Positions 32,870-35,308 of a stretch of 52,007 nucleotides of DNA are shown piece by piece. Both the position numbers and the translations under genes were made by a program. Positions within the stretch are counted from its first letter, which is position 1. Each line of letters starts with the position of its first letter. The notes beneath the pieces were generated by a model. The model was not told the origin of the DNA. It saw nothing but the letters and a program-made list of their open reading frames with translations, and searched no databases. The DNA lies in contig CAYNWD010000002.1 of assembly GCA_964400835.1 (NCBI GenBank), positions 25,604 to 77,610 of the forward strand, read 5' to 3'. The DNA comes from an uncultured Gammaproteobacteria bacterium (lineage in GTDB: Bacteria > Patescibacteriota > Microgenomatia > UBA10105 > UBA927).

Positions 32870-34132
32870 CTACGCGATGACCTCTTTTCCTAAAAATTGC
32901 TGAAGCACCTTGGGGACCGCAACGGATCCGTCTTTCTGCTGGTAGTTTTCCAAAATCGCCACCAAAATGCGCGGTGATGCTATGGCCGTATTATTAAGCG
33001 TATGGCAAAACTTAATAGTCCCGTCTTTCATTTTGTAACGGATCTTGAGGCGCCGAGCCTGAAAATCTCCCATAAATGAGTTCGACATCGTTTCGCCATA
33101 ACTTCCCAATCCTGAACCGGTCGAAGGGCGTCCCGGCATCCACGTCTCGACATCATACTTTTTTATCTGCGGCTCGCCCATGTCACCCGTACACATGAGG
33201 AGCACCCGATAGGGCAAACCCAGATCCTGAAGAATTTCTTCTGAATTGGCCAACAACTCCTCATGAAGAGTAAGAGATGTACTCGTTTCTGCAGTTGAAA
33301 TAATAACTTGTTCAATTTTGTTAAACTGGTGCAATCTGTAGACCCCCCTGGTATCTTTACCGTAGCTTCCTGCTTCCCGACGAAAACAGGGAGAAAACGC
33401 CACAAACTTTTTCGGCAAATCCGACTCCGGTAATATTTCGTCGCTAAAGTACGCGGTCACCGGCACCTCGGCAGTACCGGCCAGGTACATATCGTCCTTT
33501 TCGATTCTGTACACTTCCTCTCTCCCCCACGGAAACTGGCCGTTTCCGACTAACGTAAACTCTTTGACCAACGACGGCGCGATAAGCGGCGTGTAGCCCT
33601 TCACGACAAGCTTGTGAAGGGTATACCACATGAGCGCCAGCTCCATCTGCGCTGCCGCATTTTTTAGAAAATATGCACGGCTTCCGCCGACTTTGGCTCC
33701 GCGTTTAAAGTCGATAAGGTCAAGCGACTCAGCGAGCTGTATATGATCCTTCGGTTCAAAATCAAACACCCGCGGCTCGCCCCACTTCTTTAGCTCAACG
33801 TTGCCGCTGCTGTCGTTTCCGACCGGCACAGAAGGGTCCGGTACATTGGGAACGGTCAGCATCAGCAGGTGAAACTTTTCTTCAACTTCCCGCAGCTCAT
33901 CTTCAAGAGTCTTAAGTTCTTGCTTTAGCTGCTTTCCTTTCTGCACACTGTCTTCTGTTCTCTGTTTACTTGTCTGATTGCGCTGCGCTCTCAACACCTC
34001 AGTCTTTCCGATGAGCTCCCTGCGCCGGTCATCGAGTTTGAGCAATGTATCCCAATCGACCTCGCGGTTTTTATTCCTGGCCGCGGTTTTACAAAGTTCC
34101 AGATTGTCCCGAATAAATTTTATGTCAAGCAT
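32870..34132 (-). CDS. serS: Seryl-tRNA synthetase
   Basis: MLDIKFIRDN start, N-terminal coiled-coil arm, class II motifs (FRREAGS, GETMSNSF..). Confidence 0.93.
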   Translation of the reverse strand: MLDIKFIRDNLELCKTAARNKNREVDWDTLLKLDDRRRELIGKTEVLRAQRNQTSKQRTEDSVQKGKQLKQELKTLEDELREVEEKFHLLMLTVPNVPDPSVPVGNDSSGNVELKKWGEPRVFDFEPKDHIQLAESLDLIDFKRGAKVGGSRAYFLKNAAAQMELALMWYTLHKLVVKGYTPLIAPSLVKEFTLVGNGQFPWGREEVYRIEKDDMYLAGTAEVPVTAYFSDEILPESDLPKKFVAFSPCFRREAGSYGKDTRGVYRLHQFNKIEQVIISTAETSTSLTLHEELLANSEEILQDLGLPYRVLLMCTGDMGEPQIKKYDVETWMPGRPSTGSGLGSYGETMSNSFMGDFQARRLKIRYKMKDGTIKFCHTLNNTAIASPRILVAILENYQQKDGSVAVPKVLQQFLGKEVIA

Positions 34133-34168
34133 AGGTTAAGAATAAGTCAATGACGCGTACGTTGCAAC

Positions 34169-34444
34169 TTACGTATTGGTATTATCGACCTTGCCAACGG
34201 GTTCATCTGTATAAAAATCACACATTTCACATGTCATGCCTATCACTACCATATCATCTTCTCTGATCCATCGATGAATAAAGATGGCTCCAACAGTGTA
34301 AGGACACGTTGCCTCAAGTTGATCTCCTGCTAAAACTCTCTCCCTGTCATATTGTATCTTTAGATGTGCGTCCGGATCGCCCATATAGCCTATCCTGTTT
34401 CCGACAGCTGCACAAAAGAATATCTTTTCAGCATTATTTGCCAT
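34169..34444 (-). CDS. Small Cys-containing hypothetical protein (91 aa), first gene after the T-box leader
   Basis: Trimmed to MANNAEKIFFCAAVGN. Strong GGAGGTG SD 8 nt upstream. Contains a CEMC pair. 36 nt upstream of serS. Confidence 0.6.
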   Translation of the reverse strand: MANNAEKIFFCAAVGNRIGYMGDPDAHLKIQYDRERVLAGDQLEATCPYTVGAIFIHRWIREDDMVVIGMTCEMCDFYTDEPVGKVDNTNT

Positions 34445-34642
34445 AAAAAAACACCTCCTTTTTGAAAAGACGAGGTGTTCTCGTGGTGCCACTTTTCTTT
34501 GCTACGCAGTATTCTGTATAGCCTTGTGAACTACTCTACCCAAGGTGACATAGTTCTTCTTCTGTAACGGGAAGTCCCCGTCTCATCTTCACCGAGCCCG
34601 AAACTCGTTTTCGAAGAGAGGCTTTACCGAGGGAAAGTTCGG
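34445..34642 (-). promoter_or_regulatory. T-box riboswitch leader (antiterminator/terminator with SD sequestration); the UGGC bulge predicts a G73 tRNA, probably tRNA-Ser
   Basis: The minus strand reads GAAAAG-UGGCACC-ACGAG-AACAC-CUCGU-CUUUUC (34497..34464). This is helix A1, the 7-nt UGGNACC bulge and helix A2. The alternative hairpin is AACACCUC...GAGGUGUU followed by U7 (34479..34445). Confidence 0.72.
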
Positions 34643-34669
34643 TATATAGCGCCTTTATTAAATTGTCAA
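34641..34669 (-). promoter_or_regulatory. Promoter for the T-box leader (TTGACA, then TATATA/TATACC)
   Basis: The minus strand reads ATTATTGACAATTTAATAAAGGCGCTATATACCG. The -35 is at 34664..34669. The -10 is TATATA with a 15-nt spacer or TATACC with a 17-nt spacer. Confidence 0.55.
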
Positions 34670-34687
34670 TAATACTATTATATCAGC

Positions 34688-35308
34688 CTAATTCCGCTGC
34701 GTCAAATAACTCATAAGTAGAGGCTTCAACTTATGAAGCGCATGTCTGCGGTGGTTATATTTTTCTGTTTCCGCAGGAGTCAAAAGATCGTGGTTGTAAT
34801 ATTTTTTGATCACAGGGAGGTACAATATGGATCTATAAGGAAACCCTGCTACCCGCTCCGGGGAGGGATTTTCCGGAATGATGCCGCGCGTTGCTGCAGT
34901 CGCCGTATGGACCTCGCCGTTGGGAAGAACGAGTGCTAGGACCGCCCGCAGCTGCGCGCCTCGCTTCGCTCGGGGCAAACCCTTCATTCGTTTGAACGTA
35001 TATTCTATAAGCTCTTCGTCCCCGCTCTCTTTCAGTGGATCTATCCACCGGTGAGACCGGATTCCCGGCTCACCGCCCAGCGCGTCAATTTCAAATCCGC
35101 CATCGTCAGCAATCGTCGCTAACTTTGATTTCTCCGCATAGAATTTTGCCTTCAGAATGGCATTCTCCTCAAACGTCGCTCCGCTCTCCTCGACGTTATT
35201 TGAAATCCCGATATCGCCCAGGCTCACCATCTCGACCGGCAAATCCGAGAGAAATCTCCTGATTTCCTCAAGTTTTCCGGGATTTGTGGTTGCAATAAGC
35301 AATTTCAT
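34688..35308 (-). CDS. rdgB: Non-canonical purine NTP pyrophosphatase (RdgB/HAM1, XTP/dITP diphosphatase)
   Basis: MKLLIATTNPGKLEEI and DDGGFEIDALGGEPGIRS motifs. Confidence 0.9.
   Translation of the reverse strand: MKLLIATTNPGKLEEIRRFLSDLPVEMVSLGDIGISNNVEESGATFEENAILKAKFYAEKSKLATIADDGGFEIDALGGEPGIRSHRWIDPLKESGDEELIEYTFKRMKGLPRAKRGAQLRAVLALVLPNGEVHTATAATRGIIPENPSPERVAGFPYRSILYLPVIKKYYNHDLLTPAETEKYNHRRHALHKLKPLLMSYLTQRN

Follow-up and report, generated by a model that had tools for sequence, protein, structure and literature searches.

A probable serine-specific T-box riboswitch with a truncated Stem I upstream of serS in Candidatus Gottesmanbacteria

We analysed a 52,007-nucleotide (nt) stretch of contig CAYNWD010000002.1, hereafter the window, for an RNA leader that lies on the minus strand between a Ham1/RdgB-family gene (34688..35308) and serS, the gene for seryl-tRNA synthetase. 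The leader has the parts of a T-box riboswitch and is followed by two genes, an orphan open reading frame (ORF) of 91 codons and serS itself. Features are listed by window position in Table 1, and the loci of relatives are labelled L001 and so on. The element extends from a predicted transcript start at about 34670 to position 34442, giving a leader of roughly 225 nt. A preliminary description, made from the DNA letters, had set it at 34445..34642, a span that cut Stem I. The predicted promoter is the joint best in the 20-40 kb promoter scan, and its 5' edge falls just within the 3' end of the Ham1/RdgB-family gene; relatives have a -10-like box at an equal distance from AUAAAGGCG. A separate Logan assembly (run SRR12113420) is 100% identical to the window over 3,295 bp, so the leader region is not an artefact of one assembly pipeline. 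No protein on record is more than 80-82% identical to the encoded SerS, whose nearest counterparts come from Candidatus Gottesmanbacteria and Patescibacteria metagenome-assembled genomes (MAGs). Leader and ORF together (34133..34687) have a guanine-cytosine (GC) content of 41-43%, against 50% for the window genes, which fits a lineage-specific or mobile cassette.

Table 1. Features of the serS leader and the genes downstream of it, in window positions.
Feature	Position	Strand	Description and evidence
Sigma-70-type promoter	34677..34705	-	TTGACG, 17-nt spacer with TG before the -10 element, TATAAT; 11/12 matches
Truncated Stem I, 34 nt	34620..34653	-	RF00230 alignment; covariation in nine leaders
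Likeliest specifier codon, UCC (Ser)	34632..34634	-	Inside the invariant Stem I loop segment UUCCC
Stem II	34581..34619	-	Lower helix, purine-rich internal loop GAAAA/GUGAA at the S-turn position, upper hairpin
Stem IIA hairpin with F-box	34565..34580	-	CGGGG ACUU CCCG, F-box CCGUUA; CGGGGACUUCCCGUUA; aligned to the IIA/B part of RF00230
Family-specific linker hairpin	34528..34556	-	GAACUAU...GUAGUUC between IIA/B and Stem III; covariation
Stem III	34501..34522	-	GCUAUACAG AAUA CUGCGUAGC; covariation; flanks AAG (5') and AAA (3')
Antiterminator	34464..34497	-	A1, bulge, A2; folding; invariant in 9/9 leaders
Terminator/sequestrator hairpin	34447..34482	-	Core AACACCUC (34479..34472)/GAGGUGUU; extended by CUUU/AAAG and by A/G.U pairs into the U-run
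Shine-Dalgarno (SD) sequence AAAGGAGGUG	34452..34461	-	10-nt match, wholly paired in the hairpin; contains GGAGG (34458..34454)
U-run, U7	34445..34451	-	Invariant; AUG (34444..34442) follows directly; SD 9 nt ahead of AUG
First cistron, orphan 91-amino-acid ORF	34169..34444	-	AUG directly after the U-run
serS (seryl-tRNA synthetase)	32870..34132	-	Pfam Seryl_tRNA_N and tRNA-synt_2b; 36 nt after the ORF

The Rfam T-box model RF00230 aligned over its full length (model positions 1-219) to 34658..34463 of the minus strand, with an E-value of 5.3e-8 in a 1-kb search and of 2.7e-6 for the whole window, where it is the sole such match. The alignment also places Stem II, a IIA hairpin with the F-box CCGUUA, Stem III and the antiterminator, and it handles a 40-nt stretch between IIA/B and Stem III as an insertion. 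At gathering thresholds, Rfam reports only a tRNA-Glu in the whole window. All nine leaders of the family described below, which we call type 1, score 43-61 bits and fall under the gathering score of 93, so standard Rfam annotation misses them. The end-to-end match at a significant E-value and the covariation of the helices outside an invariant 3' domain bear out the preliminary description of this leader as a T-box.

The type-1 family comprises the window and eight homologues, all at the Ham1|serS junction in related Gottesmanbacteria. They were collected through look-ups of SerS and His_Phos_1 homologues (L082-84, L086, L111-L114) and through a pattern scan of metagenomes (L087, L105). That scan returned 21 loci, three of them type 1 (one being the L082/L084 contig again) and one a more canonical T-box (L096); the remaining loci were rejected as chance matches in coding sequence (WHHEN/D). 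No T-box was found upstream of serS in 80 GTDB serS loci, all covered by a motif scan and nine by Rfam at E <= 0.1; these loci include Gottesmanbacteria with SerS up to 80% identical. In four close relatives (L001, L004, L013, L085), Ham1 abuts serS and there is no leader.

We counted the antiterminator-state structure on a MAFFT alignment of the nine type-1 sequences. Standard pairs occupy 95.7% of the alignment cells, a figure that falls to 40-51% if the 3' partners are shifted by 1-3 columns. Both sides have changed in 28 of the 52 pairs (shuffle mean 15.8), and none of 500 shuffles reached the observed covariation score. Stem III shows both-side changes in all nine of its pairs; its flanks AAG and AA are invariant, the 5' flank (xAAG) being purine-rich and ending in G, if not exactly RRRxG. 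Stem II has changed on both sides in 8/10 pairs (lower helix 4/6, upper helix 4/4). In the window it lies one column out of register in the MAFFT alignment because of an extra G in IIA, so that its pairs are under-counted and its "unpaired" cells are an alignment artefact; the true register gives 6/7 pairs. The strands of its internal loop, CGRAA and RAAG, are conserved. The linker hairpin, with a conserved UGUC/GAG internal loop, shows both-side changes in 6/9 pairs. Covariation is silent on the IIA stem, A1, A2 and the terminator because none of them varies: in IIA, GGG..UUCCCGU.A is invariant and the F-box is CCGUUA in 8/9 leaders (CCGUAA in L105), and a 3' block of about 60 nt is almost unchanged (nearly 100% identity) although SerS identity between the same genomes is only 75-82%. 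Family membership in sequence and structure, covariation, conservation of both alternative 3' structures and gene context are established here, and the minus-strand leader is very probably a functional T-box.

Other elements occur at serS loci outside the window. Two sister genomes carry a more reduced serine T-box, here called type 2 (L086:2220-2370, L110:1640-1842), of which the window has none. It is built from an AGC/GCU base, a GC hairpin (CCCCGCC/GGCGGGG), a specifier hairpin (GGCRG-CUUCCAA-CYGCC), the bulge UGGCACC and a hairpin with a U-run. The loop of the specifier hairpin, 7 nt long, is anticodon-like, and the hairpin shows a single compensatory A-U/G-C change. Stem II, IIA/B and Stem III appear to be missing from the L086 element, of which Rfam recognises only the antiterminator (26.9 bits); L110 gives no Rfam match. 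The more canonical-looking T-box upstream of serS on metagenome contig LAHS01008607 (L096:2204-2386) scores 80.9 bits, also under the gathering score, and has a UGGCACCACGAG discriminator and an A-U pair at the base of A2. The Ham1/serS junction of a relative without a T-box (L004:2895-3014) gives a sub-threshold Rfam match to FtrB (Francisella small RNA B; 39.6 bits, E = 0.006, gathering score 66); the matched segment includes a strong GC hairpin, and the match is probably due to chance or to a terminator. About 80 nt upstream of serS, a Paceibacterota MAG encodes a tRNA whose anticodon is CUA (L018:2850-2923, "tRNA-Pyl" according to ARAGORN), which may be an amber-suppressor-like tRNA beside serS.

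The 3' end of the leader reads GAAAAG-UGGCACC-ACGAG-AACAC-CUCGU-CUUUUC-AAAAAGGAGGUG-UUUUUUU-AUG and can adopt two mutually exclusive structures, the off-state hairpin sharing the 3' half of the antiterminator. In the antiterminator, which is as first described and lies on the minus strand, A1 pairs GAAAAG (34497..34492) with CUUUUC (34469..34464), A2 pairs ACGAG with CUCGU around the loop AACAC, and the bulge UGGCACC (34491..34485), which conforms to UGGNACC, is the same in 9/9 leaders. The proposal that the terminator encloses the Shine-Dalgarno sequence was likewise confirmed, and the arrangement is kept in 8/9 family members. Competing hairpin, U7 and AUG do follow one another as proposed, but the U-run does not lie wholly beyond the 3' arm, since UU belongs to the arm and five U residues follow. 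The terminator arms are near-invariant across the nine leaders and the length of the terminator loop is variable. Calculated folding energies are -13.7 to -15.8 kcal/mol for the off-state hairpin and -7.0 to -8.7 kcal/mol for the antiterminator, a gap of about 7 kcal/mol. Minimum-free-energy folding and RNAalifold also give a long-range off-state pairing between the Stem I 5' strand GGCGYUAU (34653..34645) and the bulge region GUGGCACC (34492..34485), which is beyond covariation testing because both strands are invariant.

The SD sequence within this hairpin stands 9 nt from the start codon in 8/9 leaders and is damaged in L105 (GGUAGG), which nonetheless keeps the hairpin and U7; the real gene start in L105 is 100 nt downstream and has an SD of its own. 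Only 10 of the 44 long window ORFs have an SD-like match (GGAG, GAGG or AGGA) upstream, in a survey where some start positions were assigned mechanically and are possibly wrong. A 10-nt SD in a hairpin is exceptional for this genome, because so few of its ORFs have even a 4-nt match. In the type-2 leaders, the GC hairpin and U-run lie well upstream of the start codon and overlap no SD. We argue that termination is real because of the canonical hairpin followed by U7, because of L105 and because of the type-2 leaders.

From these structures we lean slightly towards a hairpin that gates both transcription and translation, by termination and by masking of the SD; we call this likely but infer it from structure because the window has no evident general enrichment of intrinsic terminators. 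If the element were a transcriptional attenuator only, the GGAGG of the 3' arm would merely complement the antiterminator strand CACCUC and the masking would have no regulatory effect. We consider this unlikely, if not strongly so: part of an SD-like sequence is forced, since T-boxes commonly carry CUCG in the 3' strand of A2 (RF00230 consensus), and L105 tolerates an SD mutation, but the full 10-nt match is kept in 8/9 leaders, 9 nt from a codon that starts a real protein in relatives (MVEN... His_Phos_1), and a refolded read-through transcript would necessarily have its SD paired.

The opposite possibility, a translation-only switch of the strict class II kind in which the hairpin is an SD sequestrator and the U-run a spacer between SD and AUG, has several features on its side. 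A short Stem I with a Stem II and IIA/B module has so far been tied to translational T-boxes (PMC11297988, PMC7583486), and published work links a short Stem I to translational and not to transcriptional control (PMC11297988). The hairpin pairs the whole SD and is directly adjacent to the AUG, and a strong masked SD in a genome that rarely uses one suggests translational control. Scans of the window for intrinsic terminators show no clear excess (43 vs 27 +/- 6, 23 vs 24 +/- 5 and 17 vs 14 +/- 4). A simple terminator scanner does not call the T-box terminator itself, because its outer loop exceeds 8 nt. Even so, we judge a translation-only switch improbable, since a GC-containing hairpin with an invariant U7 is the canonical signature of an intrinsic terminator, L105 keeps both despite its mutated SD, the hairpin and U-run of the sister type-2 leaders overlap no SD, and the gap of about 7 kcal/mol between terminator and antiterminator resembles that of transcriptional T-boxes (cf. 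PMC11297988).

Stem I has the same length in 9/9 leaders. It consists of a 3-bp base (GGC/GCC), an asymmetric internal loop (GCUAUA/AA), a 6-bp helix (UACCGA/UCGGUA) and an 8-nt terminal loop, ACUUUCCC. The 75 RF00230 model positions of the distal half are replaced by 9 nt, and with them the AG bulge and distal loop are absent. Both helices are 100% paired, and both sides have changed in 5/9 pairs (1/3 in the base and 4/6 in the upper helix, where, for example, UACCGA/UCGGUA becomes GGUUGA/UCAACC in L113). The initial guess of a reduced or divergent Stem I was sound: AG bulge, distal loop and canonical kink-turn (K-turn) are all missing, and Stem II and IIA with its F-box are kept.

The Stem I terminal loop follows the pattern GA-AC-N-UUCCC-UC, in which U24, U25, C26, C27 and C28 are invariant in 9/9 leaders and N is U, G or A. 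Because the base before UUCCC varies, CUU and UUU are excluded as specifiers, and UUC, UCC and CCC remain. Two specifiers suggested earlier did not survive the alignment of the nine leaders: AGU-A (34535..34532) belongs to the 3' strand of the linker helix, which covaries, and relatives have AGU, AGC, AAC or AGA in its place; AGC-A (34503..34500) forms part of the 3' strand of Stem III, also a covarying helix, and is likewise unconserved. The conserved candidate from that alignment is UCC (34634..34632). Bacterial tRNA-Ser typically has G73, and tRNA-Phe and tRNA-Pro typically have A73. UCC is the best reading because the UGGC of the bulge calls for G73, because the regulated genes are serS and, in relatives, PspA-like and SerB-like phosphatase genes, because the type-2 leaders at the same locus (L086, L110) present CUUCCAA, that is, UCC then A, in their 7-nt loop, and because UCC conforms to the third-position C rule of T-box specifiers (PMC7583486). 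The bulge, the downstream serS and the phosphatase genes under the same leader in relatives fit the serine specificity proposed in the preliminary description, and on this sequence evidence the T-box most likely senses tRNA-Ser through UCC. A specifier for another amino acid, with the loop presenting UUC (Phe) or CCC (Pro), would draw on the fact that UUC, UCC and CCC are all invariant in the nine leaders and that none precedes the canonical purine; the same four lines of evidence for UCC stand against it, and it is very unlikely.

The genes behind the leader differ among relatives. Elsewhere in the family, the AUG after the U-run opens a His_Phos_1 gene (MVEN..VRHAES..) or, in L086, an HAD-IB gene, and serS follows. 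The best NCBIfam matches of these phosphatases are PspA (138 bits) and SerB (65 bits), both under the equivalog cut-offs. The first regulated gene in relatives is a putative PspA-like or SerB-like phosphoserine phosphatase. Homology between the window and its relatives ends just after the start codon, with ATGG kept in the window and ATGGTT in L105. The slot between T-box and serS is a swap site (window 34133..34444; L082:1838-2485; L086:1235-2137; L105, minus strand, about 100 nt past the T-box) that holds, depending on the genome, a PspA-like His_Phos_1 gene, a SerB-like HAD gene or the orphan ORF. The His_Phos_1 gene that lies directly behind the T-box of L087 (minus strand) contains an in-frame TAA (RHGES*AN against RHAESIAN in relatives), which could reflect a pseudogene, a sequencing error or recoding. 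The window serS has no SD of its own (its upstream sequence is TTCTTAACCTATG) and no promoter-like site of its own.

Among 1.8 billion representatives the 91-amino-acid ORF product has no homologue: a word-indexed search found only the product itself, an exhaustive phmmer search returned only spurious multi-repeat matches, such as a eukaryotic immunoglobulin-repeat protein, and the product matches no Pfam or NCBIfam family. An origin as a His_Phos_1 or HAD remnant was rejected: tblastn, blastn and shuffled local alignments were at background, with only a non-significant C-terminal VGxxxNTN in common. The single-sequence AlphaFold model (predicted local distance difference test score, pLDDT, of 50) is too poor for a fold search. 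Shuffling gives P = 0.0013 for a frame open over 91 codons and P = 0.0007 for the absence of serine codons, serine being the sole absent amino acid; of all 91-amino-acid segments in this genome's proteins, 0.43% are free of serine. The codon log-odds score is +11.8 bits and negative in the other five frames, compared with 30 +/- 12 for true genes and -51 +/- 22 for off-frames. Openness, codon log-odds and lack of serine suggest that the ORF is a genuine coding sequence. A serine-free first cistron would fit a message translated while Ser-tRNA is scarce, which is suggestive only: the feature was noticed post hoc, and the phosphatases of relatives contain serine. Leader-peptide attenuation by the small ORF is ruled out because it has no serine codon. 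The notion that the T-box here is a decaying and perhaps non-functional relic, with the phosphatase gene lost and the ORF perhaps junk, can appeal to the orphan status of the ORF, to the low GC content of the insert and to the AA at the K-turn position, which is GA in most relatives, but it has very little chance of being right, because the window retains all family-invariant bases, 11/12 promoter matches and all helices, the AA variant recurs in L112 with its phosphatase gene intact, the ORF has the coding properties just described, and serS follows directly with neither a promoter-like site nor an SD of its own.

Overall, the leader is probably a serine-specific T-box riboswitch from a previously unannotated subfamily with a short Stem I in Candidatus Gottesmanbacteria of the candidate phyla radiation (CPR)/Patescibacteria, working by the mechanism set out below. 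Several observations weigh against this assignment. The RF00230 score of the window, 43.1 bits, is far under the gathering score. The canonical K-turn is lacking: at the positions that align to GA/GA, the window and L112 carry UA/AA and the remaining seven leaders carry UA/GA; the base of Stem I may form a non-canonical kink. The base 3' of UCC is C (34631) in 9/9 leaders and not the conserved purine. The basal A2 pair (34484 with 34470) is A-U in 9/9 leaders and not the G.U wobble that has been described as part of the sieve rejecting 3'-aminoacyl groups (PMC7583486). The S-turn and the IIB pseudoknot are not confirmable from sequence: the internal-loop strands of Stem II differ from the S-turn consensus GAA/AGUA, and no covarying pairing was found across the type-1 leaders for a IIB pseudoknot partner. 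Antiterminator and terminator are invariant across the nine leaders and thus beyond the reach of covariation. No tRNA-Ser gene was found in the window or in any CPR locus fetched; G73 and the GGA isoacceptor are assumed. Because of these points on K-turn, post-codon base, A2 basal pair, S-turn and IIB, we place the element in neither T-box class as an ordinary member.

In the mechanism that we propose, transcription would start from the promoter listed in Table 1, and the terminal loop of Stem I would offer UCC to the anticodon of tRNA-Ser(GGA). Stem II and IIA with the F-box would substitute for the missing elbow-binding platform, as in actinobacterial ileS T-boxes. When the tRNA is uncharged, its GCCA-3' end would pair with the UGGC of the bulge and lock the weak antiterminator (-7 kcal/mol), allowing RNA polymerase to read through and leaving the SD single-stranded. 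With charged tRNA, or with none, the more stable hairpin (-14 to -16 kcal/mol) would form and, together with the U-run, act as an intrinsic terminator; on full-length transcripts the same hairpin would mask the SD ahead of the AUG. The unit under control would be the serine-free ORF together with serS. Our broader proposal is more tentative. The Gottesmanbacteria T-boxes might form a subclass in which the decision to terminate is taken co-transcriptionally without a tRNA-elbow platform (the contact credited with the fast tRNA capture of transcriptional T-boxes), the hairpin re-checks charging on finished transcripts by masking an unusually strong SD, and leader plus start codon make up a portable module behind which unrelated cassettes, a PspA-like or a SerB-like phosphatase, are swapped. 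If the module is portable, its cargo here would be a serine-free protein of 91 amino acids that can be translated when Ser-tRNA is scarce. The regulon offers further hints, with two unrelated phosphatase families as candidate phosphoserine phosphatases and an orphan serine-free ORF under the control of serine starvation.

T-boxes are treated as characteristic of Gram-positive bacteria and of a small number of other phyla. A full-text search, with non-exhaustive coverage, found no open-access paper that combines T-box with CPR, Patescibacteria, Microgenomates or Gottesmanbacteria. The type-1 family extends the range of T-boxes to a phylum lacking an earlier description, in a form invisible to Rfam thresholds, and it supplies natural variants at positions considered important, with no post-codon purine, an A-U pair in the A2 sieve and no consensus K-turn.

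The closest known structural counterparts are the actinobacterial class II ileS T-boxes, in which Stem I is truncated and has no elbow platform and Stem II and IIA/B become essential (PMC7583486, PMC11297988, PMC7778990). Like these T-boxes, among them those of Mycobacterium tuberculosis and Nocardia farcinica ileS, the leader has a short Stem I hairpin without the double T-loop elbow platform. The specifier is likewise near the hairpin tip, Stem II and IIA with the F-box are retained, Stem III and a UGGN-bulge discriminator are present, and a 3' hairpin occludes the ribosome-binding site. The spacing from codon to Stem II loop is 22 nt here and 21 nt in ileS T-boxes (from residue numbering, PMC7583486). 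The Gottesmanbacteria leader differs in its CPR/Patescibacteria host, in its predicted specificity for Ser and not Ile, in an extra covarying linker hairpin, in the lack of a canonical K-turn, in C in place of a purine after the codon and in A-U in place of G.U at the base of A2. It differs also in the invariant U7 after the off-state hairpin, which is a terminator signature. Class II is defined in part by a truncated Stem I with compensating Stem II and IIA/B (PMC7583486, PMC11297988), and the leader has this arrangement; class II elements also have an SD sequestrator without an intrinsic terminator, whereas here the SD is sequestered but U7 follows.

The type-2 serine T-box shares with type 1 its locus, its regulon, the UGGCACC bulge and the UUCC core of the specifier loop. 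It differs in its 7-nt CUUCCAA loop, in a GC hairpin that replaces Stem II and IIA/B, and in a terminator that is clear of the SD.

The expression platform resembles that of the transcriptional T-boxes of Firmicutes (Bacillus subtilis tyrS and glyQS, and the serS type). Common to both are the 7-nt UGGNACC bulge between A1 and A2, an exclusive and more stable terminator, a third-position C and a position upstream of an aminoacyl-tRNA synthetase operon. In contrast to the Firmicutes elements, the distal half of Stem I (AG bulge and distal loop) is missing, and the terminator itself incorporates the SD and the start codon. A short decoding module that depends on Stem II has until now been associated with slow translational control. 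A long Stem I with fast elbow capture has been linked to a co-transcriptional decision (PMC11297988), and the type-1 family is a natural candidate counter-example to the link between Stem I length and mode of regulation, testable with an RNA of about 215 nt. The Gottesmanbacteria leader is an actinobacterial-type short decoding module joined to a terminator platform.

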